Positions 31,968-49,943 of a stretch of 64,000 nucleotides of DNA are shown here, in pieces (positions within the stretch are counted from its first letter, which is position 1; each line of letters begins with the position of its first letter). The DNA comes from Trueperaceae bacterium (lineage in GTDB: Bacteria > Deinococcota > Deinococci > Deinococcales > Trueperaceae). The stretch covers positions 4,416,001 to 4,480,000 of the forward strand of contig OZ243927.1 in NCBI GenBank assembly GCA_965213925.1, in the 5' to 3' direction. Below the pieces are notes generated by a model. The model ran no database searches and was not told the DNA's origin. It saw only the letters and a program-made list of their open reading frames with translations. Position numbers and translations under genes: made by a program.

Positions 31968-33539
31968 CTAGCGTAAATCTTGTTTGCGCGTCGGACCTAA
32001 CGCGATGTTGGGCTTAGGGCGTGACCGCTGCGTTTCACCGTAGCCGTAGCCGTAGTGCGCCGAAGCGCGTCCCACTTGCGTGACGACTGCACCTAAAACG
32101 CGCACGCCGATATTTTGCAAGCGCTCCGCTGCAACCTGTAAGCTGCGGCGGTCTGTTCCCGCTAGGCTCGCGACGAGCACCGTGCCCGTGCAAAAGGGCG
32201 CGATGGTCAAGGAGTCGGCGACGGGCAAGAGCGGCGCGGAGTCGATGACGATGACGTCGTAATGCTTACGCCAGCACTCTAAACAGGCGCGGACGCCGCT
32301 GCTGAGGAGTTCTGGCGCAGCAGAAGTCGGCTCGAAGGTGGGGATGACCTCTAGGTTCTGGGTCTGGTTGATGGCGACGTGGGTGGTCTCGGCGGTGACG
32401 TCCAGCTCGGGGTTTCGCAGAAAGTCCGCGAGCTGCTTGCGGCTCCCCGGCGCGATGCGGTACTCGTCGGCGACGTCGGGCTTGCGCATGTCGGCGTCGA
32501 CGAGCAGCGTACGGTAGTCGTTGCGGGCGAAGCTCTCGGCTAAGTTCAAGGCGACGCTCGACTTGCCCTCGGCTCCTTTGGCGCTCGAGATGAGAAAGAC
32601 TTTCGGTCCCTCCTGCGCGGCGAAGAGCAAATTGGTGCGCAAAAAGCTCATCGCTTCGGGCGACAAGCGGCGGCTCTTCGACACCTTGGGTACCTCCGCC
32701 AAAATGCTCAGCCCGAGCGCCGCCACGTCTTCGACCCGGCGCAAGCGGCTGTCGAGCGCGTTGCGCAGGAGCAGCACGCCGTAGACGATAAATATACCCA
32801 AGATAGCGGCTAAGGCGGCGTTGCGCACGGGGTTAGGCGCAGCGGGGCGCGGCGGGACGGTCGCAGGCTCGACGATAGTGAGAAGCCCCGTCGTCGAATT
32901 TTTAAGCGCCCGCGCGTAGAAAAGCTCCTCTTGCTGCTGCGCCCGCAGCGCCATGCGGCTCTCGATCTCGTTCTGGTTGCCCACGTCGCCCATGAGCCTA
33001 AGCGATTCGATGGAGTCGTCTAACGCTTCTATTTGTCCCTCTAGGGTGCTGATGTGCTGCGTGATATTCGCGCTCGCGCGCTCGCGGTCCCACGCGACGA
33101 GCGCTTGCGCCACCGCGTCGGAGTAGACGGCGGCATTTTCGCCCGTGGGGGCGGCGGCGGTGAGGTAGATGAGGCTCGAGACGTCGTCGCGCCCGCCATC
33201 AATTTCGATGAGCAATTCCTTGCGGAGCGCCGAAAGGTCACTCCGGCTCGGGTTCATCTGACCGAACTGCGCGTAGGCGCTCTCGATGACTGGATTGCTC
33301 AGGATGATCGTCTGGTAGGTGCTGTGCTCGATGGGGGGCGGCGTCAGCACCCGGTCCGAACTTGCCGAACTGGACTCGGCGGCTAAGATGGTCGTGGTTG
33401 CTTCGTAGACGGGCTCGAGCTGTTGGCTCAAGAAAAACGCCGCCGCTGCTAAGAGGAGCGCGATGGGCAGGGCGACTAAAAGCCCTCTAAAGACGAAGCG
33501 GAACAGCTCGCCGATACTCGCTTGGGATTCTTCGTTCAT
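31968..33539 (-). CDS. Polysaccharide co-polymerase / tyrosine autokinase (Wzc-like)
   Basis: Two TM, PVYEAT, Walker A SAKGAEGKS, DADMRKP, VIDSAP, Tyr cluster HYGYGY. Confidence 0.9.
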   Translation of the reverse strand: MNEESQASIGELFRFVFRGLLVALPIALLLAAAAFFLSQQLEPVYEATTTILAAESSSASSDRVLTPPPIEHSTYQTIILSNPVIESAYAQFGQMNPSRSDLSALRKELLIEIDGGRDDVSSLIYLTAAAPTGENAAVYSDAVAQALVAWDRERASANITQHISTLEGQIEALDDSIESLRLMGDVGNQNEIESRMALRAQQQEELFYARALKNSTTGLLTIVEPATVPPRPAAPNPVRNAALAAILGIFIVYGVLLLRNALDSRLRRVEDVAALGLSILAEVPKVSKSRRLSPEAMSFLRTNLLFAAQEGPKVFLISSAKGAEGKSSVALNLAESFARNDYRTLLVDADMRKPDVADEYRIAPGSRKQLADFLRNPELDVTAETTHVAINQTQNLEVIPTFEPTSAAPELLSSGVRACLECWRKHYDVIVIDSAPLLPVADSLTIAPFCTGTVLVASLAGTDRRSLQVAAERLQNIGVRVLGAVVTQVGRASAHYGYGYGETQRSRPKPNIALGPTRKQDLR

Positions 33540-33687
33540 CTTGCGCTCTTTTCTTTGGGAGTTAGGTCGTTCGGAGCTGGAGTGGTCAAACAGCTAGGTA
33601 AAGTCACGTTATCCACCGAGTCAGACGGACTAGGTAGCGTGTAACTCGGCAGAAGCGGTGTAGGAAATTCGTCACAACCGACACGTC

Positions 33688-34896
33688 TCATCTCGCCTCA
33701 ACTCCATGAGGGGTCGTTCGCCTGGCGTCGGTAGGCTCAGCAACCTCAGCCAGACACGCTGACACGGAGTCTACCATCGCCTGCAAGGAGAAGTGCGCCT
33801 GCGCCCCTACGCGCCCCCGCGCGGCTAACCGTTCGGCTTCCTCGGGCTGCTCGAGCAGCGAGGCGAGCGCCCTGGAGAGCGCCCTGGCGTCGCCGGGCTC
33901 GACTAAAACGCCTCTGTCCGCGCCGACGATCTCGCGCGCGCCGCCCGCGTTCGAAGCCACTACCGGGCGACCCGCCAACATCCCCTCGACGATAACCCGG
34001 CCGAAGGGTTCGGGCGCGGTCGAGGTGTGCGCGACCACGCTCGAGAGCTTCATCAGCGCGGGCACGTCGCGCCGAAAGCCCAAAAAGTGAACGCGCGCGG
34101 AGAGCCCTAGCGCTTTCGCGCGCGCCTTCAGCCTCTGCGCGTACGCCGCTTCGCCGAAGAGCGCCTCGCCGACGAAGAGCGCGTGGACGTCACCGAGATG
34201 AGGGGGCAGGTGAGGCAGCGCCTCTAACAGAACGTGCTGCCCCTTCCAGGGTGACAAGCGGCTAAAAACACTCACGACGGGCGCGTCGCCTAGCCCCAAA
34301 GTTTGGCGTAAGGTCGCGACCTCCGCCGCCGTCACCGCCTCAAAGGGCGCAGGGTCGATGCCGTTATGGACCACGCGAACCGGCGCGCGCCCGCCTGCGG
34401 CTGCGAACGCCTCGGCGGTCGCTTGCGAGTTGGCGATGACCTGCGCGGTGAGGTGATTCGCGAGCGCCACGACGAGGCGGCGGTTGGTGCGGCTGAAGTG
34501 CTCCGCAGTCAGGATGTCGTGCAAGCACCACACGACAGGCCGCCGCGATATCTTGCCCGCCAACGCCGCCACGACAAAGGCTTTTTGAGAGTTGGCGAAG
34601 ATGAGGTCGAAGCCTTTCGCCGCCCTCGCGACCTGAGCGACAAGGCGCAGCAGACCCGGAACCGCGCGGAAAGCGCCGCCGCCCCTATCCTCCCTCGAGA
34701 CTCCCGTCACCGCGCTAGGGGTCTGAAGAACCTGGACGTCTACGCCCGCCTCAGCCAACCGCTCACGAAACGGACCGTCCGAGAAGAGCATCACTTTGCT
34801 GCCCGCGTGACGCGCCGCATCGTGCTTCGCGAGGTCGAGCAAGTAGAGTTCCGCCCCGCCTAAGACGCCTGCGTGGTCCAAAAAGAGCACCCTCAT
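33688..34896 (-). CDS. Glycosyltransferase family 4
   Basis: True start MRVLFLDHAGVLGGAE at 34896; RLSPWKGQ, EPFGRVIVEGM. Confidence 0.9.
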   Translation of the reverse strand: MRVLFLDHAGVLGGAELYLLDLAKHDAARHAGSKVMLFSDGPFRERLAEAGVDVQVLQTPSAVTGVSREDRGGGAFRAVPGLLRLVAQVARAAKGFDLIFANSQKAFVVAALAGKISRRPVVWCLHDILTAEHFSRTNRRLVVALANHLTAQVIANSQATAEAFAAAGGRAPVRVVHNGIDPAPFEAVTAAEVATLRQTLGLGDAPVVSVFSRLSPWKGQHVLLEALPHLPPHLGDVHALFVGEALFGEAAYAQRLKARAKALGLSARVHFLGFRRDVPALMKLSSVVAHTSTAPEPFGRVIVEGMLAGRPVVASNAGGAREIVGADRGVLVEPGDARALSRALASLLEQPEEAERLAARGRVGAQAHFSLQAMVDSVSACLAEVAEPTDARRTTPHGVEAR

Positions 34897-36341
34897 GCAG
34901 TTTTCCCAACGGCGCGCTTTGAGCGCTCGAACTCGTACGACGACAGCGTCAAACATAAGAAAAACCAGATGACCACGCCCATCACGCCGACCCAGGCGTT
35001 GCCGAAGGCGACCTGGCTGAGCCCCGCCACCGCGACGCTCAAGCAGGTCGTGCCGAACGCGCCCGAGCGCCTGAGGCGCGCCAGCGCGAGCGCGAAGAGC
35101 CAGCCGACGCCGCCCGCGTAGTAGAGCGTCCCGAGCGCGCCGAAGGCGTACGGCACCGCGATGACGCCGCTGTCTAGGTTGACCACGCCGCCCCGCGCGT
35201 TTAAGTCGGCGGCGACGCCCGTACTCCCCAGCCCCAGACCGAGCGGATGCCGGACGAGGAACGACGCCATGTCGGTATAGAGCGTCAGGCGGGCGCGGTA
35301 ACTCACGTCGCCCTGAACGTTGTCGAGCGACTCGAAGCGCGTGTTGACCGACTCGGCGATAGGTCCGAAGCGTAAAAGGGGCAGCGCCGCGACGCCGACC
35401 GCGACCAAGGTCAAGGCTAAGCGCGTGCGCTCGCGCGCCGGCAATTGCGCGGCGAGGACGAGCAGACCCACGACTAGCCCGCCCCAAGCGGAGCGCACCA
35501 GCGAGAGCATAAAGCTCGCGAAGCCGACCGCAGCCGCCCCCCAGCGGAGCACGCCGGGCGTGCGCAAGAGCAGCAGCAGCCCCGCCAGCATCACCACGGC
35601 GAACGGTCCCGGCGAGTTGAGCGTGCTGAAGACGCGCACCTCGAAGGGCTCGGGCGACCCGATGGAGCCCATGTCGGACTGGACCATCCAGTAGCTGTCC
35701 CACGCAGGCATGACCAGAAATTGGTAGAGCCCGTAAAGCCCCATGACCAGCACACCCCAGATGAAGGTGCGCTGGACCACGCGCCGCTGCGCCTCAAAGT
35801 GGTGCGGCGTAACGAGCAAGTACGCGCCTAAAACCACGGGCGCGAGCCAGTTGAGCAGGTCGAAGGTTGCGCCGAACACGCTGCCGAGCAGAACGCCGAT
35901 CCCGTAGCCGTACATGAGCCCCAGCAAGACGAGCGCGAAGGGCAGCCGGTAGCGCGGCGCGAAGCGGTGCAGGTTGAAAAATACCGGGAACGCCGCTAAG
36001 CACGAGACCAGAAAGGGCGCGACCATGACCAGGCTCGCCTCGGTGTAGCCCGTCTGGTTATCCACTAGGCGGCGCACCTCGGGGGTCAAGAACCAGAGCC
36101 ACCAGGTGTAGCCTAGGTAGCCCGCCGGACGCTGCCAGAGCCAGAGCGCGCCGACGCCCGTCGCCAGCACCGGGAACGCGAGTTGTAAAACGCTCGAGCC
36201 GCCCCCAACGACACCCAGCGCCGTAACGCCCACGAGCCCGATAAGGGACGCTATGGGCAGAGCCTCCAAATACACGTTACCGCCGCGACCACGCCCTGCG
36301 GGGGACCCGCCTTCGGCTCGAGCCCGGTACGCGCGTATCAC
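34893..36341 (-). CDS. Wzy / O-antigen ligase-like polysaccharide polymerase
   Basis: About 11 TM; RVFSTLNSPG, SLVRSAW, R...Y...PLGLGLG, DSG. Confidence 0.8.
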   Translation of the reverse strand: MIRAYRARAEGGSPAGRGRGGNVYLEALPIASLIGLVGVTALGVVGGGSSVLQLAFPVLATGVGALWLWQRPAGYLGYTWWLWFLTPEVRRLVDNQTGYTEASLVMVAPFLVSCLAAFPVFFNLHRFAPRYRLPFALVLLGLMYGYGIGVLLGSVFGATFDLLNWLAPVVLGAYLLVTPHHFEAQRRVVQRTFIWGVLVMGLYGLYQFLVMPAWDSYWMVQSDMGSIGSPEPFEVRVFSTLNSPGPFAVVMLAGLLLLLRTPGVLRWGAAAVGFASFMLSLVRSAWGGLVVGLLVLAAQLPARERTRLALTLVAVGVAALPLLRFGPIAESVNTRFESLDNVQGDVSYRARLTLYTDMASFLVRHPLGLGLGSTGVAADLNARGGVVNLDSGVIAVPYAFGALGTLYYAGGVGWLFALALARLRRSGAFGTTCLSVAVAGLSQVAFGNAWVGVMGVVIWFFLCLTLSSYEFERSKRAVGKTA

Positions 36342-37204
36342 CGGTTCGCCTCCGCGGGTGCTGTAGCGTCTATCGGTGCGTCTTTGTAGGTATCCTCTTT
36401 ACAGGTGTCCTCCGGCGCGTAGAGCGCGGGCGGGTGAGGAGTGCGCGCCGCGTTCTGCCGCTCCCACAGCTTGGCGTAGCGGATAAAGTCGCTCGTCGCC
36501 TTGAGCAGCGAATGCATGAGCCCGCGCGTTCCCAAGCGAAAGCCCCCTCTGGCGACGTAGCTCCACAAAAAGCGCAGCACGGGCTTCACGGCGATGTCCG
36601 CCGCCGTCGCCCGCTTCCCCAAACGGTCGAGTTCAGCGGCTTCTAGGGTCGCGTAGCGGTTGAACAGCCCGACGAACTCGTCCACCGTATGCCCGTTCCA
36701 GTGGAGCAACACCCCCTCGACCGGAATGGACACGCCGGGAAAGCGCACCTCTTCGTGCACGTTCATCGCCGTGTCATAAGCGCTCTCCTTGCGGTTATAG
36801 AGCCGCACGAAGCTTCGCCTCTTGCTAGGTCGCGACTCGTTCGGCAGCAAGACGCCCAAAAAGTCGCCGCGGCGGTCTAAGGCGTAGGCGTTACGGGCGT
36901 CCAGCGGTCCGCGCAGCACCTCCTGCAAGGACGCGGACAGCTCCGGCGTAGCGACCTCGTCCGCGTCCAAAAAGAGCACCCAGTCGTGCTGAGCCAGCGC
37001 CGCCCCCCGGTTGCGCTGCTTCGAAAAACCGAGCCAAGGCTGCTCGAACACGTTCGCGCCCAAAGACGCCGCGATCTCCTTTGTATCGTCCGAGCTGCCC
37101 GAGTCGATGACGAGCACCTCGTCCGCCCAGCGCACGCTGCGGATGCAGCGCCCGATGAACTGCGCTTCGTTCTTCGTCATGATTACGACGCTGAGAGGGG
37201 TCAT
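36338..37204 (-). CDS. Glycosyltransferase family 2 (WaaE/KdtX-like)
   Basis: SVVIMTKNE, DSGSSDDT, WLGFSKQRN, LDADE, VHE. Confidence 0.9.
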   Translation of the reverse strand: MTPLSVVIMTKNEAQFIGRCIRSVRWADEVLVIDSGSSDDTKEIAASLGANVFEQPWLGFSKQRNRGAALAQHDWVLFLDADEVATPELSASLQEVLRGPLDARNAYALDRRGDFLGVLLPNESRPSKRRSFVRLYNRKESAYDTAMNVHEEVRFPGVSIPVEGVLLHWNGHTVDEFVGLFNRYATLEAAELDRLGKRATAADIAVKPVLRFLWSYVARGGFRLGTRGLMHSLLKATSDFIRYAKLWERQNAARTPHPPALYAPEDTCKEDTYKDAPIDATAPAEANR

Positions 37205-37293
37205 ATCAACCTCTTTTGACCGCACGGTTGGTCCACAAGATTAAAGTCACTGACCGAGATGCCACAGATGGCGATGTCGCTGACACGAAGCTC

Positions 37294-38250
37294 CTAACTC
37301 TGCACTTTCGTAGACCCCAAGCGCCTCAACCAGCGCGCTTTCACAATCGTTAAACCCAGACGGACGCTGTTCTTGGCGTAGCGCAGCCTTGGATAGTGCG
37401 CCAACGCCTCCTGGTGGAGCTGCGACGCTTCCTTGTCGTCGCCCGCATAGAGCAGCGAGCGCCACGCCGTATGAAGATACGCCCGCCCCAAAGCTCGCCC
37501 CTTGAGGTGCTGCTGCGCCGCGGGCACATCCCGAAAAGATTTATCGATGATTCGGCGGAGCGTAGGCAGGAGCGACTGATAGTTCTTGTGCTTGTTGTCG
37601 GCGTGCTGGCGGTAGGCAGCTAGGGGTTCTTTAACTACCGCAAAGCGGTAGCGCGCGGTGATGCGAATCCACATCTCCCAGTCTTCGGCGTAGCGAAAGC
37701 TCTCGTCAAACGTGCCGACCTCTCCGAAGAGTCGGCGGCGCACCAGCGGCGTGCTGCCGCAGCGCACCAGGTTGTACTCGACCATCTGCGCCCACACGTC
37801 GCCCTCTAAATGCTGCGTCATCACCTTGCCGATAGGCTCGCCCGCCGCGTTGATATACGAAATCCAGGTGTCCACCAAGCCCACCTCAGGGTCAGCCTCC
37901 ATGCGCGCCACCTGCTTCTCGAGCTTCGTCGGCTGCCACAGGTCGTCCGCGTCCAGAAAGGCGACGTACTCGCCCCTTGCCGCCGCCACGCCCGTGTTGC
38001 GCGCCGCCGCCGCGCCGCCGTTGGGTCTCGAGACCAGCTTGACCCTCGGGTCGGGGTGCGCCGCCGCCCAGCTCGCCGTATTGTCCTTGCTACCGTCGTC
38101 TACGATGAGCACTTCGAAGTCTTGGAGCGTTTGTGCCAAGACGCTCTCGACGGTGTGCGGAAGAAAGCGCATGGCGTTGTAGGCGGGGATGACGACCGAC
38201 ACTTTGGGAATAATATGTGGAGCTTTGGAAGAACTTGGCTGATAGGGCAT
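37294..38250 (-). CDS. Glycosyltransferase family 2
   Basis: VSVVIPAYN, VDDGSKD, ARNTG, FLDADD, EDWEMW. Confidence 0.92.
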   Translation of the reverse strand: MPYQPSSSKAPHIIPKVSVVIPAYNAMRFLPHTVESVLAQTLQDFEVLIVDDGSKDNTASWAAAHPDPRVKLVSRPNGGAAAARNTGVAAARGEYVAFLDADDLWQPTKLEKQVARMEADPEVGLVDTWISYINAAGEPIGKVMTQHLEGDVWAQMVEYNLVRCGSTPLVRRRLFGEVGTFDESFRYAEDWEMWIRITARYRFAVVKEPLAAYRQHADNKHKNYQSLLPTLRRIIDKSFRDVPAAQQHLKGRALGRAYLHTAWRSLLYAGDDKEASQLHQEALAHYPRLRYAKNSVRLGLTIVKARWLRRLGSTKVQS

Positions 38251-38390
38251 GGTGTCCTTTTACGTGAGTCTCAACACTGTCGCTGGCACGACCTTAATCT
38301 CAGAGGTTGCGCGTCCCGCGAAGTCCGGTGTGAGTAGCGGACCGGTCCACGTGAAGTTTAACTTTTTTCAAACTAAGATATGCTGAGTGA

Positions 38391-38598: not shown

Positions 38599-38607
38599 TG
38601 ACCCCGC

Positions 38608-39660
38608 TCACTCGGCACCGCTCACAACCTCTCGAAAAGCTTGCCATGTTTCCTTGCCGACCTCTCCCCACTCGAGCGCGTTCAGGTCCGCGCGTTGCCC
38701 CGCGACCCCTCGCGCCCACGCCTGACTCGCCCGTAGGTCCGCCGCGCTCAGCATTCCACGGTACATCTTAACCCAAGCCTCACCCACTTTCCCCTGCAAC
38801 TCCTCCATCGCACCCATGTTAGGGACCAGGATAGGTGTATCGAGCGAGAGCGCCATCAGCGCGCTGCCCGAATGCAAGATGTCCTTGTAGGGAAGAACCG
38901 CGACGTCCGCAGCGGCGAAGTAGTATTGTAGGTCGTCATCCGGGATAAACGTCAAGTGGAGCCGCACGCGCGGGTCATCCTGCGCTGCTTTCTCTATCTC
39001 ACGCTTTAAGCGGGGCGTGCGAGGATTGCCCGCGACCAAAAGCAGCGTCTGCTCGTCGTCAAGTTCGCGGAAGGTGCGCACAAGGTGGGGCACGTTTTTG
39101 TACCTTCTGATCTGCCCGAAGTGCAAGACAACCCCGACCTCTTCCGGTATCCCCAGGCGCTCGCGGGCAACTCGTTTTGACACCTGCACCTGATGCGAGT
39201 CGCGGTAATGACCTCTCGGAATCACGAACGAGGGCAGCGTTTTGAGGTGCGGAAACTTTGCGGTAGCCTCATCTGCTGCCGTTTGGCTGAGCGCAATCCA
39301 GCCGTCTAAGAGTTTGACGTAAGGGCGGTAGAAAAACGGCTCTAGGTAGGGATGATAGCGCTCGTGCGGGCGGAGGTTATGCACTGTCCACACGAGCTTA
39401 ACTCCTTTGGACTTAGCCTCTTTCAGCCAGCCCAATATCTCAGAGGTGTGCTTCATGATTTTGAGGGGGCTGCGCGTGTTGAAGTGGGTGTCGGGCCAGT
39501 GGATGTGCCACACGTCGTAACCGTCTACGCTAAAACGCCCCTCAGACATCGCCTGGGTCGAGAAGTCGTCTATCTCGACGCCAAAGGGTTTCATGCTGCC
39601 GTACAAGAGGTCCATGTGGTTATTCGTGGGGATGGAGGCGGGCCAGGCGAGTATTCGCAT
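38608..39660 (-). CDS. Glycosyltransferase family 4-like
   Basis: HIHWP, VWTVHNL.PH, FGQIRRYKNV, D..VLPY....SG. Confidence 0.88.
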   Translation of the reverse strand: MRILAWPASIPTNNHMDLLYGSMKPFGVEIDDFSTQAMSEGRFSVDGYDVWHIHWPDTHFNTRSPLKIMKHTSEILGWLKEAKSKGVKLVWTVHNLRPHERYHPYLEPFFYRPYVKLLDGWIALSQTAADEATAKFPHLKTLPSFVIPRGHYRDSHQVQVSKRVARERLGIPEEVGVVLHFGQIRRYKNVPHLVRTFRELDDEQTLLLVAGNPRTPRLKREIEKAAQDDPRVRLHLTFIPDDDLQYYFAAADVAVLPYKDILHSGSALMALSLDTPILVPNMGAMEELQGKVGEAWVKMYRGMLSAADLRASQAWARGVAGQRADLNALEWGEVGKETWQAFREVVSGAE

Positions 39661-39691: not shown

Positions 39692-40903
39692 TTAGAGCGC
39701 CTCGATAAGCGCGACGAACTGTTCGTTCAAAACATCGTTATTGAACTCCCGCTCGACTTTAGCGCGGGCGGCGCGGCTCATATCGCTCAAAGTCTGAGGG
39801 GACGAGAGAAGCTCGAGCAGCCCCCTAGCGAGTGCGTCACTGTCGCGCTCGGGCACTAGATAGCCCGACACGCTATGTTCGATGAGTTCGGGGATGCCGC
39901 TATGCCAGGTGCTCAGCACGGGCGTTCCTTGCGCCATCGCCTCCATGATTGCCACTGGGATGCCCTCCATATCGCCGTTTTGCGCCGTGACGCTCGGCGC
40001 GAGCAGCACGTGAGCTTCGGAAAGCGTTTCGAACACGACGCGGCTCGGCTGAGGTCCTAAAAACCTAACGTGTGTCTGCACCCCTAAATGTGTCGTCTCA
40101 GCTTCTAGCACTTTGCGCAACGGACCGTCACCGATGATCGTATAGACGAGGTCGGGGTGCTGTGTAATAACGGCAGGCAGGGAGCGAATCGCGTAGATGA
40201 GCCCCTTTTTCTCTACCGCCCTCGCGACGCTCAAAAGCTTGACGGGCTCTCTCAGCGGCGTAGGATTAAAGGCGATCTCCGAACACGCGACGCCCATGTG
40301 GTGCACGCGCATCTTTTCAGACGGGAAGCCTTTCTCCTCGAGCCGCGCTTTCCACAGCTCGTTGACGGTTAGGAACAGGTCGCCCTCCTCCCTAAGCTGA
40401 GCGTAAGCGTCAGGGTGCGCGTCCAAGTAGGCGGAAACGTCAACCCCGTGAAAGATAGTAACGATTTTTCCAGAGAGTGCCCCGGCACCCTTGAGCGCCG
40501 CCGCCTCAGCGCCGTTGTAGCCGAAGTGACAGCAGACTACGTCGAAGGGCGGCTTCTGATTGAGAAAGGTCACACCAGCGGCAAAGAGCCGCGCGCTCCA
40601 GCGTCCTCTCAGGTAATCTCGAGGGCGCAGCACGCTCAAGTAAGCGGGGATGTTCGCGGGGTGGCGCACACACGACCTCAACATAAGCGCCGCCACGCTG
40701 AAGAGTCGCTCGAGCTTACGGCGCTCACCGGGCAGATAGAGGACCCTCACCCGCTCCGCCACCGGCACGTTGGCGCTAGGGTCCGCGCTAGGTTGCGCAA
40801 CCACGCTCACCTCGTGCCCAGCTTGGGCGAGCGCCTCGATCTGGCGGTAGACAAACGTCAAAGAGGTCAAGGGAAACTCCCTCAGCACGAACGCTATCTT
40901 CAC
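39692..40903 (-). CDS. Glycosyltransferase family 4, WcaL-like
   Basis: FP..S.TF, HFG, FHGVDVS, R.VEKKG, DMEGIPVAIMEAMA. Confidence 0.9.
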   Translation of the reverse strand: MKIAFVLREFPLTSLTFVYRQIEALAQAGHEVSVVAQPSADPSANVPVAERVRVLYLPGERRKLERLFSVAALMLRSCVRHPANIPAYLSVLRPRDYLRGRWSARLFAAGVTFLNQKPPFDVVCCHFGYNGAEAAALKGAGALSGKIVTIFHGVDVSAYLDAHPDAYAQLREEGDLFLTVNELWKARLEEKGFPSEKMRVHHMGVACSEIAFNPTPLREPVKLLSVARAVEKKGLIYAIRSLPAVITQHPDLVYTIIGDGPLRKVLEAETTHLGVQTHVRFLGPQPSRVVFETLSEAHVLLAPSVTAQNGDMEGIPVAIMEAMAQGTPVLSTWHSGIPELIEHSVSGYLVPERDSDALARGLLELLSSPQTLSDMSRAARAKVEREFNNDVLNEQFVALIEAL

Positions 40904-40909
40904 GGCTAT

Positions 40910-42247
40910 TTACGCTTTCACATGGTCTTGAGCTGACGGTTTACTTGCGGGGTCTAGGTCAAACACGTAGTCCAAAGCGTCGAAGGATGCCTCAGCCCGC
41001 CGATGCTCGCTCAGAACACCTTCAAAAAGCTGCTTATTGAAACTCGAGTAGTGCTCGACAAAACGCTCAATCTTACCTGCTAGTTCGTCGCCTGTAACGG
41101 TATCGATGTCCGAAACATACTTACCGATGCCGAAGCGACGAAAGAGTTCGGTCGTTTTGAACTCGTAAGAGATAGGCACGACGGGCGTACCTCTCGTAAG
41201 TGACAAAATAGCGACGTGCAGCCGCGTTGCTATGACAAGGTCAAAATCTGCCAGCTTAGCTTGCAAATCGAAAGGATCGTTGAAGTCAGAATTGACGGTT
41301 ACGCTCGCCTGATAGACTGGGTCTAGCTCGTCGAATACGCGCTGCGCGACTTTGGCGTCGTCCACCCAGTATTCAGGTATGCCCTGACAGGTGGAAATAA
41401 AGGTCACTTGCGCCCCGTAGGTGTCAATGACGAATTCCGTCGCCTGCCGGACGGCTTTCAGATATCTCTTCATACCGACGTCGGGCGAATCGTTTTTGAA
41501 ATACGGCCAGTGCCGCACCGATATGGCTACACGCTTAGGACGTAACGCTATAGCTTCACCCGCTTCCGCCACCTCTTTCTCTACCGCCGTAACGAAAACA
41601 GCGTCGGCTGACACCTGCATGTTGTCCGCCGTGTTCACGCTCTTGCAGTGTTCGTAAGAAGCCTCGTCGCGAAGCAGAATAAGGGCACACTTGGGAAACA
41701 CCTGACTCAGCATCTCTCGGTTGCGCTCCTCTGTAAAGGGTCCCATCGACTGAGTAAAGAGGACGACGGGGCGACCTGTGGCGAGCGAGAAACTTAGTTC
41801 GTCGTACCTCCTCTTGATGGAGTAGTTCTCGACGATGTAGGTCCCGCCCGTACCAATAATCATATCTACACTTACGTAATCGTCGAAAATCGCTCTCACC
41901 CTTGCTGGCATGAGCGCGCGGGCTAGGTTGATCCAGCCCCGCCTGAGCAGGGCGAGCGAAAGCACAGCCCGCACACGCTGCCCCTCTTGTTTTATCTTTC
42001 GACGTATCTTGCTGACTAGACCGGGCTGCGCCGCCGACCCCTCCCCCCCAAACGACCTCAAAACGTACTGTAGCTGGCTCTTGATCGTCAGGTCTGGGTA
42101 GTAGCGACGCGCCGCCTCTGCCTGGGAATCGTAGATCACAAACTCCGTATCGGGCCCGTATTTCTGCTCCATGCCCGCGATCATAGACTTGAGTATGGCG
42201 GCGTCGCCGGCGTTGAGCATGACTATATTTGTGATAGCGATTTTCAC
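40910..42247 (-). CDS. Polysaccharide pyruvyltransferase, WcaK-like
   Basis: NAGDAAI, GGTY, QSMGPF, LRDEAS, ADAVF, TRLH, YEFKT. Confidence 0.9.
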   Translation of the reverse strand: MKIAITNIVMLNAGDAAILKSMIAGMEQKYGPDTEFVIYDSQAEAARRYYPDLTIKSQLQYVLRSFGGEGSAAQPGLVSKIRRKIKQEGQRVRAVLSLALLRRGWINLARALMPARVRAIFDDYVSVDMIIGTGGTYIVENYSIKRRYDELSFSLATGRPVVLFTQSMGPFTEERNREMLSQVFPKCALILLRDEASYEHCKSVNTADNMQVSADAVFVTAVEKEVAEAGEAIALRPKRVAISVRHWPYFKNDSPDVGMKRYLKAVRQATEFVIDTYGAQVTFISTCQGIPEYWVDDAKVAQRVFDELDPVYQASVTVNSDFNDPFDLQAKLADFDLVIATRLHVAILSLTRGTPVVPISYEFKTTELFRRFGIGKYVSDIDTVTGDELAGKIERFVEHYSSFNKQLFEGVLSEHRRAEASFDALDYVFDLDPASKPSAQDHVKA

Positions 42248-42276: not shown

Positions 42277-43743
42277 TCAGCCTTTAGCTTTGAGAGGGCG
42301 GCGTAGCGGGAGCGTCGTGCGAACGAGGTCGAACACTCTGAGCGACAAGGCTGGGGCGATCAGCCTTATGCTCGCTAAATAGGACGTGCCGCCCGCGAGC
42401 GCGAGCAGCGCGAGCCTGACGGCGGGCGCGAGGTTAGCGGACAGCGTGAGCGTAGCGTAGAGCGCGCCGACCATGAGGAGCGAAGCAGTGAGCGGACCTA
42501 GAAAGCGTCTGAGATAGTCCTTGATGCTTATGTTGGTGAGCCGCTTGACCATGATCACGCTGACGGGCGAAAGAATGTATGCGCGGATTGTATAGGCTGC
42601 CGCGACCGCTTCGATGCCGAAGCGCACCACGCTCAGAAACGAAACCAGGTTGATCACCGCCGAGAGCGCGCCGTAAGCGACCTGCCACTGAGGTTTCCCG
42701 TAGGCTTGAACGACGACGAAATTGAAACTGAGCGAAGTCTGAATCATGCCCGCGCCGCAGAGAATTTGCAGCACGAGCACGCTCTTTGTCCACTCCTCGC
42801 CGAACACGAGAGGCACCAGCAGAGGTGCGACAAAGGCGAGACCTATAAAGGCAGGGAACGCCAAGAAGCTAACCGTCTCTATGAGGGAATAGAACGCCCT
42901 CCTAGTACGGGCAAGCTCCGTTTGCGTACGCGAAATAGCCGAGAACGCGACCTCGGAGAACGACGAGGAGAAAAGCTCCGCAACGATATAGTAAGCGCGG
43001 TAGGCTACGCCGTAAAAGCCGAGCGCGGTGGGACCAAGGAACGCGCCGATCAAGAGGTCATCGCTACGCCGGTTGATAAACGTCAGCGCCCGTGTGCCGA
43101 ACGAGTTGACTTCAAAAGCGAAGAGGTCTACGAAGTGCTTCCTCGAAAACGCGAACCTCGGTCTCCAGGAACTTAAAAACCACAAGGTTGCTGTGGACAG
43201 GACGCTCGAGATAAGTTGCTGAGCGACGAGGCTCCACACCCCGAAACCTGCGAACGCCATACCCACCCCGACAGCGCCGCCCACAACTAACCCCAGCAGG
43301 GTCCGCACCGCGAGCGCTCTATACGCAAGCTCTCGCTGCAAATAAGCGTTCTGCACGTTGACAAATGCGTTGATGATAAAGACGAGCGAGAGCCAGCGTA
43401 AGATAGCGCCGAGTTCTGGCTGGTTAGATAGATGGGCGATGAGGGGCGCAAGCGCGAAGACGAGCGCTGTGAGTAGAGCGCCCGTGACGATATTGCTCCA
43501 GAAGGCGGTGTCTAGGTGCTCTGGTTCGAGCTTGGGGCGCTGCACGAGCGCTTTGACGAAGCCGTTGCCCAGAAAGATATCGGCTATAGCGATAAATACG
43601 CCCGCGTAGGCGACGAGGCCGAACGCTTCCGGTCCGAGGAGCCGGGCGAGGATGAAAAAGACGAGCAAACCCCAGAACCGGGCAGCCCAGCGCTGCACAA
43701 GAGACCAGACGACTCCGACAATCGTTCTTTCTTTAAGGCTCAT
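42277..43743 (-). CDS. Wzx flippase (PST family)
   Basis: LARLLGPEAFGL, ALVQR, GFGVWSLV.QQ, DDLLIG..LG..ALGFY. Confidence 0.92.
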   Translation of the reverse strand: MSLKERTIVGVVWSLVQRWAARFWGLLVFFILARLLGPEAFGLVAYAGVFIAIADIFLGNGFVKALVQRPKLEPEHLDTAFWSNIVTGALLTALVFALAPLIAHLSNQPELGAILRWLSLVFIINAFVNVQNAYLQRELAYRALAVRTLLGLVVGGAVGVGMAFAGFGVWSLVAQQLISSVLSTATLWFLSSWRPRFAFSRKHFVDLFAFEVNSFGTRALTFINRRSDDLLIGAFLGPTALGFYGVAYRAYYIVAELFSSSFSEVAFSAISRTQTELARTRRAFYSLIETVSFLAFPAFIGLAFVAPLLVPLVFGEEWTKSVLVLQILCGAGMIQTSLSFNFVVVQAYGKPQWQVAYGALSAVINLVSFLSVVRFGIEAVAAAYTIRAYILSPVSVIMVKRLTNISIKDYLRRFLGPLTASLLMVGALYATLTLSANLAPAVRLALLALAGGTSYLASIRLIAPALSLRVFDLVRTTLPLRRPLKAKG

Positions 43744-44023
43744 TATTCGTGGGTCTCATCTCAGAAATGGGAGTAGAGGTGGGTGCGCCATAAGGCTCGA
43801 GCTTACGGTAGCGAGTCGCCTCCTCGAGGTGCCACCGCCCAGCGCATTTAACCATAAGCCACAGTTCATGTCTACGCGGTCGGACGACCGTAAGGACATA
43901 GCCAGAATGGAAAATGCTATCTTGAATCCGCGGAGCAAACGCCGCGTTTAATACGGAGTGTCTAAATTTTGCGGTACGCCGCGACCCACTCGAACCCCTG
44001 GAAAGCCCTATAAGGAGCGACCC

Positions 44024-45098: not shown

Positions 45099-46073
45099 TC
45101 AATCCTTAATTGTCGGAGCACTTTCTACTCGCGCCGTTGCACCATTCACTATTAAGCTGTCCTGCGGCAGAAAACGCACCTCACGCTCGAGCCACACCCC
45201 AAAGCGCTCCTGCACCACCTCTTGAATATGCGCCATCAGCGCCTTGACGTCTTGCGAGGTCGCCTCGCCGCCGTTCTCGATCCAGTTGGCGTGCGTGGGG
45301 CTCACCACCGCACCGCCGACCTTATAGCCTTTGAGCCCGGCTTGGTCGATATACCAGCCTGCGGGCTCGCCCCCCTCGGGCTGCTTAAAGACGCTGCCGC
45401 TCGTGTGACGCTGCAAGGGCTGCTTGGCAGCGCGCTTTTTGAGCACCTCTTTTTGCCGCGCCTTGATCGCGTCTACGTCGTCTCGTTTTTCGGCGCGAAA
45501 GGTCGCGTCTAGGACCCAGTGAGTGTGCAAGAGGTCGCTGTGGCGGTAGCGCAACCCGGCTTCGCTGGCGCTGAGCGTTTGGATGCGCCCTGTGGCCAGC
45601 TCGAGCGTCCGCACAGATTCTAAACGTTCGCTGATCGAGACGCCGCTCGCCCCGCCGACGCCGGCGTTAATGGCGACGCCTGCGCCCACCGTGCCGGGAA
45701 TGCCAATTAGAAACTCGAAGCCAGAGAGACCCGCTTGCCCCGCCTTGACCGCGAGTTTAGGAAGCGGACAGCCCGCCTCCGCGCGGACGCGCCCCCCGTC
45801 GGCGTCCACCGTGACCTCGTCGAAGGAGCTGCGCAGACAGACGACCACGCCGGGGACGCCCGTGTCGTCGATGAGCGTGTTCGAGCCGCGCCCTAAGATG
45901 GTGAGGGGCAAGCAGGCGTCTTTAGCGTACTCGTAAGCGGCGATGAGTTCGTCGGCGCTGTCGGGCTCTAAGAGCACCTCCGCTTCGCCGCCGATGTTCC
46001 AGGTCGTGTAGGGCGCGAGCGCGTGGTGGTAGCGGGGCGCGTTGACGTAGTCGGGAGGAGCGAGTTCAGGCAT
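45099..46073 (-). CDS. murB: MurB-like enolpyruvyl reductase (paralogue within the EPS locus)
   Basis: TTWNIGG, LGRGSN, GIPGTVG...NAG, YRHS, GSVFK, HANWI.N, LEREV. Confidence 0.88.
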   Translation of the reverse strand: MPELAPPDYVNAPRYHHALAPYTTWNIGGEAEVLLEPDSADELIAAYEYAKDACLPLTILGRGSNTLIDDTGVPGVVVCLRSSFDEVTVDADGGRVRAEAGCPLPKLAVKAGQAGLSGFEFLIGIPGTVGAGVAINAGVGGASGVSISERLESVRTLELATGRIQTLSASEAGLRYRHSDLLHTHWVLDATFRAEKRDDVDAIKARQKEVLKKRAAKQPLQRHTSGSVFKQPEGGEPAGWYIDQAGLKGYKVGGAVVSPTHANWIENGGEATSQDVKALMAHIQEVVQERFGVWLEREVRFLPQDSLIVNGATARVESAPTIKD

Positions 46074-47400: not shown

Positions 47401-47778
47401 CGTTACACTCCTAAAGAAGGATTCTAGCCGTAAACGCGCGCGCATGTCGCGCATAAGTCACATGTCGAGGTCAGTTTTGTGCTGCTTGTTCTGTGCTGCT
47501 TATGGCTAGGTGCCGCGCGGCGCTCTTCTCGCGGCTACATCCCGTGTGCGGAGTTCGCACCTGTTTCCATCATGCAAGCATATGGGTGCTGACAACGTTT
47601 CCTGCGTAGCGGGACCGCTTCATAAGTTGTACTAAGCGCTAGTGAGACCGATCACAGACCCGGAGCGCGACTCGCCCGGCGAGCGGCGCGAGCACCCCCG
47701 AGCGCATCTGTCACACGAATATTTCATATACACAGCGCGGCTTTGCCCCTATTATAAAGCATACCTGAGGGACACCCC

Positions 47779-47900
47779 GCCCTCGGACGCGATGAAACCT
47801 GTTTCGCAATGAGCTTCGGAAGGGAAGCGTAACGCGGCCTTTCCGAAGTTCTCTTGGGCGCTTGAAACAGGCGGAGCAAGTAGCGCAACCGGCCGGGGGC
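47779..47900 (+). ncRNA. c-di-GMP-II riboswitch with an inserted hairpin
   Basis: P1 GCCCTCGG/CCGGGGGC; GGACGCGATGAA; CCTGTTTC/GAAACAGG; loop GGGCGCTT pairing with AGCGC of GGAGCAAGTAGCGCAACCGG, matching the class II consensus with covariation. Confidence 0.82.
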
Positions 47901-48032
47901 ACACCTTTGCTTTCTCACGTCATCTTCTGCGTCTATCCCCTTGCGTTCTCCCTGTGCCCACCTAACCGAGTTGAGCTGAAGCCTGGCTCGCCAGGTCTCA
48001 ACACACTCACCGGGGTCATTTGGAGGCAGAGG

Positions 48033-49943
48033 ATGAAAAGGAACATTCAGGTTGTGAAACGGACGCTGACTCAGTATGCTAAAGGCGTGGTGGCGGCTCT
48101 GTTACTCCTTTTATTCGCGGCGTGCGGCGGCGTAACCCAAGCACCTACTTTGGATACGCTCGCGGCGACCTTGGCGACGAGCGAGCACGGGCTCGTCGTC
48201 GAAGCCGAGGCGTTTCACGCGAAGGCGGCTAAGGGCAAGCACCAGTGGAAAGCGCGCGGCGACGCGATGTACGCCTTGCCCGACGTCAAAACGACCTACA
48301 ACAGCAACTTTACTTTGAGAAGCCCCCGCTTGGACTACCGGATCAGCGTCGAGCAGCCCGGCACCTACTACGTGTGGGTCAAGGGAATGGCGGCCGGCAG
48401 CTCGAAGGGCAGCAGCGACTCGGTACACGTCGGCTTAAACGGCAAAGCGGTAAGGAGCGCCGACCGTATCAGCGGCTTTGGTACCCGCTTCGGTTGGAAA
48501 AAGGGAACGATGGACGGCCCTAGAGCCAAGCTCAAGCTGAGCGCGGGGACCCACACCCTCAACGTCTGGATGCGCGAAGACGGTTTCGCGTTCGATAAGC
48601 TCGTCTTAACCCGCGACGCTAGCGCGAAGCCCGCCGCCGTCATCAAGGCGACCGAAAACGAGCAAGAGGCGACCAGCGGTCCGGCGCTGCCCGTGCCGAG
48701 TAGCAAAGAGAACACAATGAGTTTACCGCGCGTAAAAGCGAAATCTGCGGGCAGCTTTATCGACAGCATCGGCGTGAACACGCACCTGCACTACCAGGGC
48801 ACGGTCTACGACAAACGCTACGAAGACCTTATCAAGCCTAAGCTTTTAGAGCTAGGCGTCCGCCACATCCGCGACGGCGCGTACACCTACGAGGAGGCAG
48901 GGCGCAACACCTTCTTCTACAAGCGGCTCCGCGAGCTAGGCGCGGCGGGCATCGACTTCAACCTGCTCACCTCATTAGAGACCCCCTATAACGACGCCAC
49001 GGACTACAGCAAGTTGGACGACGTCGTCTCCTGGACGGACGGCGCGGTCACTTCGTTCGAGGGCATCAACGAGCCCGACTTGCAAGGCATCAGCGGTTGG
49101 GTCAACCTCACCAGAGACGCGCAGAAGAAACTCTACGGCACCGTAAGGGGCAACCCGGCGCTCAAGGACGTAAAAGTTTTAGGTCCGTCGCCCGTATGGA
49201 AGGCGAAAGACTTGGGCGACTTGAGCCGCTACATGGACTACGGCAACACCCACCCTTACCCCGGCGGTAAGATGCCGACTGGCAGCGAGTACGGTCAGAG
49301 CACCCAAACCAGCATGGTCAAAGCCTCCAGAAACAGCGGCGTCAAACCCGTCATGTTCACCGAAACGGGCTATCACAACGCCCTCAAAACCGACAACGAT
49401 CACGCACCGACCTCCGAAGCGGCGACCGCCAAGTACCTCCCCCGGATGCTCCTGGCGCACTTCAACATGGGCGTGCCGCGCACCTACCTATACGAACTCA
49501 TCGACAGCAAGTCCAAAGGGCGCAGCACGGACCCCGAGGCGTCCTTCGGGCTCTTGCGCAACGACGGGTCCGAAAAGCCCGCCTTTAGAGCGGTGGAGAA
49601 CCTCATCGACTTGCTGGAGGACTCCGGCACCTTCACGCCCGGCGCGCTCAACTTCTCGCTGAGCGGCAGCGCGGACGACGTCCACCAGACGCTCCTGCAG
49701 AAGCGCGACGGCACCTTCTACTTAGCGCTCTGGTCGGCGAAGGAGAGCTGGGACCGCGACTCGAGAGAAGACGTCCGCGTGAACGCGCAAAACGTCACCG
49801 TGACGCTCGGTTCAGACGTTAAGAACGTGACCTTACATACCCTAAACGGCGCGGGGCGCATGTCCAAAAGAGCAGTGTCCTTACAGAACGGCTTGGTCGA
49901 GCTTAAGGTCGGTGACAGCGTGACGGTGCTCGAGCTTCGTTAA
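48033..49943 (+). CDS. Lipoprotein glycoside hydrolase, clan GH-A (GH5/GH39-like), with an N-terminal CBM-like beta-sandwich
   Basis: Lipobox LFAAC; EAE..REDG..FDK domain; GVNTH, NEPD acid/base, HPY, TETG nucleophile, FGLLRNDGSEKPAF. Confidence 0.85.
   Translation: MKRNIQVVKRTLTQYAKGVVAALLLLLFAACGGVTQAPTLDTLAATLATSEHGLVVEAEAFHAKAAKGKHQWKARGDAMYALPDVKTTYNSNFTLRSPRLDYRISVEQPGTYYVWVKGMAAGSSKGSSDSVHVGLNGKAVRSADRISGFGTRFGWKKGTMDGPRAKLKLSAGTHTLNVWMREDGFAFDKLVLTRDASAKPAAVIKATENEQEATSGPALPVPSSKENTMSLPRVKAKSAGSFIDSIGVNTHLHYQGTVYDKRYEDLIKPKLLELGVRHIRDGAYTYEEAGRNTFFYKRLRELGAAGIDFNLLTSLETPYNDATDYSKLDDVVSWTDGAVTSFEGINEPDLQGISGWVNLTRDAQKKLYGTVRGNPALKDVKVLGPSPVWKAKDLGDLSRYMDYGNTHPYPGGKMPTGSEYGQSTQTSMVKASRNSGVKPVMFTETGYHNALKTDNDHAPTSEAATAKYLPRMLLAHFNMGVPRTYLYELIDSKSKGRSTDPEASFGLLRNDGSEKPAFRAVENLIDLLEDSGTFTPGALNFSLSGSADDVHQTLLQKRDGTFYLALWSAKESWDRDSREDVRVNAQNVTVTLGSDVKNVTLHTLNGAGRMSKRAVSLQNGLVELKVGDSVTVLELR

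Follow-up and report, generated by a model that had tools for sequence, protein, structure and literature searches.

What is made by an 18-kb gene cluster that joins the flippase, polymerase and glycosyltransferases of a Wzx/Wzy-dependent pathway to a pyruvyltransferase, a sulfotransferase, a pair of MurA/MurB enzymes of the kind used in cell-wall synthesis, and a lipoprotein glycosidase gene preceded by an RNA aptamer? The cluster lies at positions 31968-49943 of a 64,000-nucleotide stretch (the window) of contig OZ243927.1, from the Trueperaceae bacterium assembly GCA_965213925.1. It was originally predicted to direct a highly anionic, water-holding polysaccharide decorated with pyruvate ketals, sulfate and lactyl ethers, with synthesis and release linked to cyclic di-GMP (c-di-GMP). 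We scanned the translated open reading frames (ORFs) of the window with Pfam and NCBIfam models (47 ORFs covered across the 64 kb: 13 + 16 + 18), and searched the whole 64 kb with Rfam at gathering thresholds. Each of the predicted gene classes, namely a Wzc-like protein, a Wzy-like protein, Wzx, five glycosyltransferases, the pyruvyltransferase, the sulfotransferase, the MurA/MurB pair, and the glycosidase with its aptamer, was found at the coordinates given for it, in the ORF listing and by the Pfam, NCBIfam and Rfam matches; the gene positions stood, while several starts and labels were corrected (a family 4 glycosyltransferase (GT4), the sulfotransferase, the MurA-like protein, the hydrolase, and the class of the aptamer). 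We put somewhat better than even weight on the reading that the locus directs a Wzx/Wzy-dependent heteropolysaccharide, either capsule or slime, of a Deinococcus-like bacterium, built by the steps proposed below. Each component belongs to a known family; it is the combination, together with the borrowed copies of cell-wall enzymes, that is unusual.

In the proposed pathway the five glycosyltransferases would assemble the repeat unit on a lipid carrier, started by a priming transferase presumably encoded elsewhere. The dedicated and probably horizontally acquired MurA/MurB pair would make a lactyl-ether amino sugar, UDP-N-acetylmuramic acid (UDP-MurNAc) or a close analogue, rather than have it drawn from the cell-wall pool. 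A hexose would be added by the WcaL-like transferase and pyruvylated by the WcaK-like enzyme, as in colanic acid, and sulfate would be added by the sulfotransferase at the expense of 3'-phosphoadenosine-5'-phosphosulfate (PAPS). Wzx would then flip the unit, the Wzy-like protein would polymerise it under the control of the tyrosine-kinase co-polymerase, and the PslG-like lipoprotein glycosidase may trim or release the polymer, under the control of c-di-GMP through the aptamer in its leader. The features concerned are collected in Table 1.

Table 1. Features of the locus, with their positions in the window and the matches on which the assignments are based (aa, amino acids; GT2, family 2 glycosyltransferase).
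Feature	Position	Strand	Basis
Wzc-like co-polymerase and tyrosine autokinase, 523 aa	31968..33539	-	Wzz + GNVR + AAA_31, TIGR01007
GT4 glycosyltransferase	33688..34896	-	Glycos_transf_1 125 bits, Glyco_trans_4_4
Wzy-like polymerase / O-antigen-ligase family membrane protein, 482 aa	34893..36341	-	PF04932 Wzy_C
GT2 glycosyltransferase	36338..37225	-	PF00535 81.3 bits
GT2 glycosyltransferase	37294..38250	-	PF00535 133.2 bits
GT4 glycosyltransferase	38608..39660	-	Glycos_transf_1 40.8 bits
WcaL-like GT4 glycosyltransferase	39692..40903	-	TIGR04005 wcaL 263 bits
WcaK-like polysaccharide pyruvyltransferase	40910..42247	-	PF04230 PS_pyruv_trans 101.6 bits
Wzx, MOP-family flippase	42277..43743	-	PF13440 299.6 bits
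PAPS-type sulfotransferase, 273 aa	44024..44845	+	PF17784 (Sulfotransfer_4) 42.3 bits, PF13469
MurB family protein	45099..46073	-	NF010480, TIGR00179
MurA-like enolpyruvyl transferase, 444 aa	46066..47400	-	PF00275 224 bits
Promoter-like site about 20 nt 5' of the aptamer	47727..47755	+	Consensus scan
c-di-GMP-II-class aptamer	47776..47903	+	RF03169, RF01786
PslG-like glycoside hydrolase lipoprotein, 636 aa	48033..49943	+	GH115_C-like domain, fold match
Terminator-like hairpin 3' of the hydrolase gene	49967..49993	+	Pattern scan: eleven-pair stem, T-rich tail

That the locus is a Wzx/Wzy-type polysaccharide cluster is supported by the domain content of its minus-strand block. These genes are transcribed in the order Wzx, pyruvyltransferase, WcaL-like GT4, GT4, a gap, GT2, GT2, Wzy_C protein, GT4 and Wzc-like protein, with start and stop codons overlapping at the GT2/Wzy and Wzy/GT4 junctions. 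The GT4 that follows the Wzy-like gene starts at the ATG at 34896, which overlaps the Wzy stop codon; an upstream-extended ORF of 671 aa overlaps the Wzy frame. The gap (38251-38607) is 357 bp long, with a G+C content (GC) of 0.50, and contains a promoter-like site on the minus strand (38556-38527), suggesting two minus-strand transcription units; a second intergenic stretch of low GC (0.55) lies inside the locus at 43744-44023. The Wzc-like protein scores 115.4 bits on TIGR01007 (cut-off 108.05) and fits the BY-kinase / PCP-2 (polysaccharide co-polymerase) type in having the Wzz and GNVR domains, the motifs GAEGKS, VDADMRKP and VIDSAP, which we take to be Walker A, A' and B, and a C-terminal YGYGYG, presumably the tyrosine cluster. 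The Wzy-like protein just exceeds the cut-off of PF04932 (33.5 against 31.7 bits), a family that also includes O-antigen ligases, and has no NCBIfam match. Wzx matches PF01943 as well (130 bits) and scores 249.7 bits on NF007773 (cut-off 273), and the GT2 at 37294-38250 has TuaG-like and EpsD-like proteins as its top NCBIfam matches, each under cut-off. The absence of an initiating phosphoglycosyltransferase and of Wza, already part of the original prediction, was borne out: the 47 ORFs contain no match to Bac_transf, Glycos_transf_4 or Poly_export.

One of the closest known counterparts is the colanic acid cluster of E. coli (wzxC-wcaK-wcaL, together with wzc and wcaD), likewise Wzx/Wzy-dependent and equipped with a tyrosine-kinase co-polymerase. 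The window genes for Wzx, the pyruvyltransferase and the WcaL-like transferase follow one another as wzxC, wcaK and wcaL do in E. coli, and in the same orientation, their products being 28%, 27% and 39% identical to the K-12 WzxC, WcaK and WcaL proteins, respectively. All three nevertheless fail the corresponding NCBIfam equivalog cut-offs. The WcaL-like protein matches TIGR04005 over its full length, under the cut-off of 537.6 bits. The pyruvyltransferase scores 121 bits over its full length on the WcaK model NF007452 (cut-off 399) and 100.8 bits on TIGR04006 (cut-off 727), and is thus to be taken as a member of the PF04230 family only. The window also differs from the colanic acid cluster in having no wcaJ, wza, wzb, GDP-fucose genes or acetyltransferases, and in adding the sulfotransferase, the MurA/MurB pair and the riboswitch-led hydrolase.

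Within the locus, the MurA/MurB pair is the most informative. The two genes overlap by 8 bases and form a transcription unit of their own, the sulfotransferase gene lying between them and the wzx operon in the opposite orientation; the murA-like ORF extends over 46066-47454, the protein as recorded (444 aa) starting at 47400. Both proteins appear to have kept the machinery of their families. Aligned with the Haemophilus influenzae MurA structure 2rl1, the MurA-like protein retains the Lys-Asn pair, the cysteine of GGC, the Arg, the Asp and the C-terminal RGY, residues which we take to have their catalytic roles in MurA, and MurB retains the serine of GSVFK, the Arg and the Glu in alignment with solved enzymes. 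The MurA-like protein nevertheless scores 368.2 bits on the murA equivalog TIGR01072, under its cut-off of 392.7, and passes a subfamily cut-off. MurB fails the short-MurB model NF011245 (165.6 bits, cut-off 224), and its best solved relative is the Listeria MurB 3tx1 (168.6 bits), the Thermus MurB 2gqt scoring lower (115.7 bits).

Where such MurA-like proteins occur was read from a survey of 185,579 species, each represented by a single genome, which gave 318 pattern matches, 276 of them encoding a MurA-like relative. The best 80 of these 276, hereafter the cassette loci, encode proteins 61-70% identical to that of the window and are spread over nine phyla: Pseudomonadota (37), Bacteroidota (27), Thermodesulfobacteriota (8), Verrucomicrobiota (2), and one each from Balneolota, Chlorobiota, Planctomycetota, Armatimonadota and the archaeal Methanobacteriota, with one further locus lacking a phylum label. 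Deinococcota are represented by none of the 80. In a tree of 89 rows, obtained by a quick search, the 84 cassette rows including the window are split from five housekeeping MurA (none of them from Deinococcota) by one branch with a support of 100 in the SH-like approximate likelihood ratio test (SH-aLRT). Plasmid matches are likewise bimodal: 7 of 146 records lie at 61-66% identity, the other 139 fall below 60%, and those listed among the latter, annotated as murA, are 36-39% identical. The window pair thus shares with housekeeping MurA/MurB the two families, the catalytic residues and the adjacent, overlapping genes; it differs in that the MurA-like protein falls in a clade of its own, within which identities across phyla are 61-70%, as against some 37% to housekeeping MurA. 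The clade also differs from the peptidoglycan enzymes in its settings, which are polysaccharide loci, plasmids and a murein-free archaeon.

The surroundings of the cassette loci were described by clustering the ORFs within 8 kb of the MurA-like gene and naming the cluster representatives through Pfam. MurB is nearby in 62 of the 80 loci, directly downstream in 37, directly upstream in 5 and further off in 20, the remaining 18 having none. The other frequent neighbours are those of polysaccharide synthesis: a GT4-like family (44 of the 80), a second GT4 family, an NAD-dependent epimerase and a hexapeptide acyltransferase that is often directly upstream of the MurA-like gene (39 each), two families of Wzx-type flippases (34 and 30), a UDP-sugar dehydrogenase (27), GT2 (18) and Wzc (14). 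Four out of four cassette MurA tested fall, like the window protein, under the TIGR01072 cut-off (351-392.1 bits), nine out of nine cassette MurB pass TIGR00179, and a Psychrobacter cassette MurB fits the Gram-positive-type model best and not the E. coli-type. Similar arrangements occur on plasmids, as in Qingshengfaniella (murA-like, murB and GT2) and in Agrobacterium, where murB and the murA-like gene lie within a cluster of Wzy, tyrosine kinase, dehydrogenase and epimerase genes. They also occur in Methanosarcina barkeri: a contig of a metagenome-assembled genome (L001) encodes the MurA-like protein at 9971-11236 and MurB at 11229-12191, adjoined by a flippase, GT4s, an epimerase and a UDP-sugar dehydrogenase. 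M. barkeri MurA-like proteins 68-69% identical to the window protein are also named in the protein database, and since these come from complete genomes the archaeal cassette is no binning error. Methanosarcina has no murein. The role of MurA/MurB-like proteins in murein-free archaea is described as unclear in the part of the source available to us (PMC10117817).

From its residence in polysaccharide loci, mostly with MurB and also on plasmids, we conclude that the sequences of the MurA-like clade represent a mobile sugar-precursor cassette and not a copy of the cell-wall genes. Judged by what the peptidoglycan enzymes make, the cassette would yield UDP-MurNAc or another lactyl-ether sugar related to it. 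The full-text literature that we searched, outside of which lie the subscription journals, contains no description of MurA/MurB, or of an enolpyruvyl/lactyl pathway, in polysaccharide clusters. We consider it possible, though rather less than probable, that the pair stands for a widespread, mobile and undescribed non-peptidoglycan pathway to lactyl- or enolpyruvyl-sugars in at least nine phyla, murein-free Methanosarcina among them, which in this Deinococcus-like lineage would be joined with pyruvylation and sulfation into a triply anionic exopolysaccharide whose PslG-like processing enzyme would be controlled directly by a c-di-GMP riboswitch. As side observations, nine loci have no MurB although at least 5 kb is available on both sides (L005, L032, L054, L059, L062, L065, L067, L071 and L073); the glycans of these nine might retain the unreduced enolpyruvyl ether, or another reductase might serve. 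In one locus (L003) the small hexapeptide-repeat acyltransferase (9474-9995) lies directly upstream of the MurA-like gene; it has no counterpart in the window.

The sulfotransferase gene is divergent from wzx and convergent with murB. Its ORF extends over 43958-44845 (+), and the start at 44024 is the most likely, as it gives the relatives' length of 273 aa; 594 relatives were found, mostly of this length, the few named ones coming from cyanobacteria, purple sulfur bacteria, Nitrosomonadales, marine Gammaproteobacteria and Bacteroidetes. The protein clearly exceeds the PF17784 cut-off of 22.8 bits and also matches PF13469, and it has a P-loop-like AKSGTHS segment of which K36, T39 and S41 are invariant in 34 sequences, as is R120. 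Its structural model has a mean predicted local distance difference test (pLDDT) score of 93.5, with 50 PDB matches at E<=1e-3, the listed ones all being sulfotransferases. By family, modelled fold and PAPS-binding loop, it is predicted to be a PAPS-dependent sulfotransferase; its predicted acceptor, a polysaccharide, is suggested by the gene context alone. Searching plasmids by tblastn gave no match to it.

Sulfotransferases within Wzx/Wzy clusters have precedents: they are established for the synechan (xss) cluster of Synechocystis 6803 (PMC8205485) and were proposed in 2026 for the wps-1 cluster of Actinoplanes missouriensis (PMC13390465), in both cases as far as the passages available from these papers go. 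In xss the outer-membrane exporter gene lies outside the cluster, as it would for the window, and wps-1 includes a glycoside hydrolase. Unlike the window, each has two sulfotransferases, which belong to other Pfam/InterPro families; the available text of either paper mentions no pyruvyltransferase, and the passages mention neither MurA/MurB nor a riboswitch. Both papers, in the same passages, call sulfated bacterial polysaccharides exclusive to cyanobacteria (PMC8205485, PMC13390465).

The third addition, the hydrolase gene, is divergent from murA-like/murB, together with its promoter-like site and aptamer. Its start is most likely the ATG at 48033, which follows a GGAGG at 48022; the start of the ORF at 47862 falls within the aptamer. 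The protein consists of a signal peptide with Cys31, the signal helix ending in the lipobox-like LFAAC, followed by an N-terminal beta-sandwich, a TIM barrel and a C-terminal beta-sandwich. The only Pfam match is PF17829 (GH115_C-like) in the N-terminal domain; the catalytic part matches no Pfam family, GH39 included, and no NCBIfam model. Its AlphaFold model (pLDDT 86.9) has PslG as its top three Foldseek matches, namely 4zn2 (E 9.9e-21, template modelling score (TM) 0.70), 5bx9 and 9g17, overall with E values of 1e-19 to 1e-20 and TM 0.65-0.70 on the target; the GH39 enzyme 5jvk comes next. Across 43 sequences, E347 (in NEP) and E444 (in TETG) do not vary. The modelled GH39 fold and this glutamate pair mark the protein as a probable PslG-like glycosidase. 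With PslG of Pseudomonas aeruginosa it shares the TIM barrel and C-terminal beta-sandwich, the predicted membrane tether and a gene position beside polysaccharide genes; it differs in being only 17-19% identical in sequence, in its additional GH115_C-like beta-sandwich, in having a lipoprotein signal, and in having its own promoter and riboswitch instead of being co-transcribed with the synthesis genes as in the psl operon. PslG has a transmembrane anchor, is required for normal polymer production, and disperses biofilms if added externally.

Relatives of the hydrolase listed number 248, mostly "hypothetical", the few named ones belonging to Chloroflexota, cyanobacteria, Gemmatimonadaceae and the gammaproteobacterium Alkalilimnicola. 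Atlas matches of the catalytic part fall in unnamed and in GH39/GH5/GH42-like clusters, and tblastn against plasmids gave 10 distant records of 25-34% identity, none of them of help in comparing the riboswitch. The closest relatives (P0003, P0005 and P0007; 67-76% identical) are longer, 805-812 aa against 636, and two of them carry PF02806. Elsewhere in the genome of the window, on the 4,584,497-bp contig where the window's own proteins are recorded, a protein of 748 aa (P0076) combines the GH115_C-like beta-sandwich with a beta-helix (PF13229); it is 60% identical to the hydrolase over 29% of the query and may target the same polymer.

In the leader of the hydrolase gene, directly upstream of its ORF, lies the one RNA that Rfam recognises in the 64 kb at gathering thresholds. 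The match is to RF03169 (c-di-GMP-II-GAG; 41.7 bits, cut-off 40, E 9.9e-5 over the window); the canonical model RF01786 nevertheless fits better, aligning over model positions 1-84 of 84 (E 7.3e-9 over 351 nt), and the variant signature is not carried. The 3' core reads GCGCAACCGG, the canonical consensus being GUGCAACCGg and that of the GAG variant GCGAGACCGa, and by this reading of the consensus lines the GAG-variant letters are missing. The apical loop carries an inserted, well-paired hairpin of some 43-56 nt, to which the loss of score is largely due. The RNA thus agrees with the c-di-GMP-II class in its full-length match to both models, its readable conserved core segments and its 5' leader position; it differs in the extra hairpin, and in that neither a terminator nor a ligand-dependent switch at the ribosome-binding site (RBS) was recognised. 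We regard it as an aptamer of the c-di-GMP-II class, with c-di-GMP as the predicted ligand. Riboswitches of this class are common in Clostridia and Deinococcus, and their variants were reportedly defined by Weinberg et al. in PNAS in 2017; our literature search, within the limits already given, produced nothing usable on c-di-GMP-II-GAG, on c-di-GMP-II variants or on c-di-GMP-II in Deinococcus. The promoter-like site ahead of the aptamer, TATACA-17-TATTAT, agrees with the consensus at 9 of 12 positions, the scan having found 3 sites with 1.6 expected. A pattern scan found no intrinsic terminator between aptamer and hydrolase gene. Folding (minimum free energy, and a constrained partition function with the P1 helix forced or forbidden) places the hydrolase start codon in a helix of 47921-47930 with 48026-48035. 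The predicted link of synthesis and release to c-di-GMP is retained for the hydrolase gene, which lies behind the riboswitch, and not for the synthesis genes, which have no visible link to the nucleotide; GGDEF, EAL and PilZ domains are missing from all 47 ORFs scanned. The "riboswitch-led hydrolase" itself stands, while "release" is only one of two plausible roles, polymer processing during synthesis fitting equally.

Whether the modifying genes belong together was judged from relatives of the locus. The closest MurA-like relatives are 86%, 84%, 80% and 80% identical. A contig of 15,830 bp is common to the cluster of the 86% MurA-like protein (clustered at 90%), a 94% identical sulfotransferase and a member of the cluster of the 76% identical hydrolase. 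The 86% MurA-like cluster and the 76% hydrolase both also occur on a contig of 4,393,473 bp, and a member of the 84% MurA-like cluster and a 52% identical hydrolase both on one of 484,279 bp. These co-locations, read from equal contig sizes, are an indirect sign that in close relatives the genes for the MurA-like protein, sulfotransferase and hydrolase stay together on the 15.8-kb contig. The opposite reading, that hydrolase-bearing relatives lack the MurA-like gene, was rejected because the cluster members share the contig. Co-occurrence of the MurA-like gene with the sulfotransferase and hydrolase genes extends to a close relative and to none of the 80 distant loci. At 90% identity or more the Wzx, glycosyltransferase and Wzc proteins have no relatives, and megablast of the 18 kb against plasmids gave no match. 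In the same relative, neighbouring genes have diverged unevenly (sulfotransferase 94%, MurA-like 86%, hydrolase 76%).

As to the threefold decoration, the three acid-adding functions are encoded and look intact, so that this part of the prediction can be kept. That the three acid groups would be placed on one polymer is inferred and not shown, as are the acceptor of each modifying enzyme, the exact sugar made by MurA/MurB, and the ligand and direction of the switch. The term "decoration" fails for the lactyl group: if MurA and MurB act as in wall synthesis, the lactyl sugar would be a building block and not a late addition. The role as a water-holding matrix is speculation.

Several results weigh against reading the 18 kb as one anionic polysaccharide pathway. 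A priming transferase, an outer-membrane exporter, a PAPS-synthesis gene and a c-di-GMP enzyme were all unmatched among the 47 ORFs of the 64 kb. MurB passes housekeeping cut-offs (NF010480 298.8 bits, cut-off 259; TIGR00179 221 bits, cut-off 144.5), and the fold matches of the sulfotransferase, with TM of 0.44-0.56, mix small-molecule, tyrosyl-protein and heparan enzymes. On the canonical model the aptamer scores 45.0 bits, under the gathering score of 53.5, so that it passes only the variant model, and the unpaired probability of the RBS (0.144, 0.144 and 0.145) is unchanged by the aptamer P1 helix. Relatives of the pyruvyltransferase, sulfotransferase, Wzx, Wzy and hydrolase are found in 0 of the 80 cassette loci (BLAST, E<=1e-3), flippases of other families being present there, and the combination would therefore be local and not a conserved system. 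Finally, GC is uneven (sulfotransferase 0.52, pyruvyltransferase 0.54, MurA 0.66, Wzy 0.67), which together with the position of the sulfotransferase gene on the opposite strand suggests a mosaic of modules. In its full form, which we hold unlikely, this alternative states that the modules do not serve one polymer: one or two glycans would come from a high-GC Wzc/glycosyltransferase/Wzy block and a lower-GC wzx/wcaK/wcaL-like block, and the sulfotransferase would modify something else, for instance a lipid, small molecule or protein. It would account for the range of GC, for the 357-bp gap that splits the minus-strand genes, for the varied acceptors of the sulfotransferase's fold neighbours and for the absence of the other modifying genes from the cassette loci. 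It fits less well with the single Wzx, single Wzy-like protein and single co-polymerase, by which two complete pathways are not encoded, with the 15.8-kb contig that has the sulfotransferase, MurA-like and hydrolase genes of a close relative together, and with the occurrence of sulfotransferases in Wzx/Wzy clusters, documented for synechan (PMC8205485) and proposed for wps-1 (PMC13390465), as given in the available passages. On exopolysaccharide clusters of Deinococcus the literature searched, again outside the subscription journals, contained nothing relevant.

Two further alternatives concern the nature of the lactyl sugar and of the polymer. MurA/MurB could simply be peptidoglycan enzymes, or a back-up pair of the type of MurA2/MurZ in Gram-positives, in which case the polymer would bear at most pyruvate and sulfate. 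The two equivalog cut-offs passed by MurB, the subfamily cut-off passed by the MurA-like protein, the full set of catalytic residues and the separate transcription unit are all in line with this. We nonetheless regard it as quite improbable, given that the MurA-like protein shares 61-70% identity with a clade whose members occur in polysaccharide loci of nine phyla, on plasmids and in murein-free Methanosarcina, against only 36-39% with annotated housekeeping murA, and that MurB scores higher against the Listeria/Staphylococcus type than against Thermus MurB and fails NF011245. From a vertically inherited housekeeping murA one would also expect closer Deinococcota relatives among the best 80, where there are none, though the best plasmid matches of a flanking ATP-grasp gene are from Deinococcus (D. 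deserti 68%, D. taeanensis 65.5%; the others below 60%, six of those listed at 55%). The polymer, on the other hand, could be a secondary polymer bound to the cell wall, with the pyruvate ketal anchoring S-layer proteins through their SLH (S-layer homology) domains and the MurNAc-type sugar linking it to the wall or mimicking the latter; this we consider improbable. CsaB-dependent pyruvylated polymers anchor SLH proteins in Thermus and Bacillus, and an SLH/CsaB link exists likewise in Deinococcota. The pyruvyltransferase does match the CsaB model TIGR03609 too (97.7 bits over residues 154-373), no outer-membrane exporter is present among the 47 ORFs, and a muramic-type sugar would suit a wall-associated glycan. 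The CsaB score is nevertheless far under its cut-off of 213, the WcaK model scoring higher and over the full length; the trio of Wzx, pyruvyltransferase and WcaL-like transferase mirrors that for colanic acid, a free slime; co-polymerases with a tyrosine kinase and enzymes like PslG typically belong to systems that make capsule or slime; and neither a LytR-CpsA-Psr ligase nor an SLH protein was seen among the scanned ORFs. We therefore retain the Wzx/Wzy-dependent capsule or slime as the preferred reading, at the strength given at the outset.

The genes flanking the locus, for a metallophosphoesterase and a ligand-gated channel to its left and for a K+/H+ antiporter to its right, are unrelated to it. 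The calcineurin-like metallophosphoesterase (30926-31921, +) is convergent with the tyrosine kinase gene, 46 bp apart. The Agrobacterium plasmid also encodes a metallophosphoesterase, directly upstream of its tyrosine kinase and with no detectable homology to that of the window; that such a protein might be the partner phosphatase of the kinase is pure speculation. The channel (29860-30903, +) is a prokaryotic, glutamate-receptor-like protein in which the ion-channel pore interrupts the solute-binding domain. Further away, an IS982-like DDE transposase is encoded at 3898-4737 (+), with its best match on a Meiothermus taiwanensis plasmid (54% identity over 48% of the query) and matches on four Deinococcus plasmids too. 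The best matches of this transposase and of the flanking ATP-grasp gene both point to Deinococcota and make a Deinococcus-like origin of the window plausible. The gene for an aminoglycoside 3-N-acetyltransferase family protein (16529-17209, +; PF02522, 260 bits) has kinase-like and nucleotidyltransferase-like genes downstream of it. An operon at 54217-58755 (+) encodes a circularly permuted ATP-grasp protein, an Alpha-E protein and two transglutaminase-like proteins, and the region 58800-61900, about 3 kb of lower GC (0.52-0.53), has short ORFs only, the longest of 137 aa.

A polymer that did combine lactyl ether, pyruvate ketal and sulfate would count among the rare sulfated bacterial polysaccharides from outside the cyanobacteria, and it would be a candidate for the strongly hydrated, metal-binding matrices that are linked with desiccation tolerance. 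To regard sulfated polysaccharides of bacteria as confined to cyanobacteria is, in our view, an overstatement. The riboswitch-hydrolase pair would offer a simple test bed for the control of matrix processing by c-di-GMP. Lactyl-ether sugars have long been reported by chemists in the glycans of marine bacteria, and the cassette bears on the genetics of these sugars. If the polymer has the three groups, a function would also be assigned to the MurA/MurB cassette, which is of wider reach: its genes are annotated in hundreds of genomes as peptidoglycan enzymes, with Gene Ontology terms for cell division, despite their settings in polysaccharide loci, on plasmids and in a murein-free archaeon, and it bears on annotation and on reasoning about fosfomycin targets.

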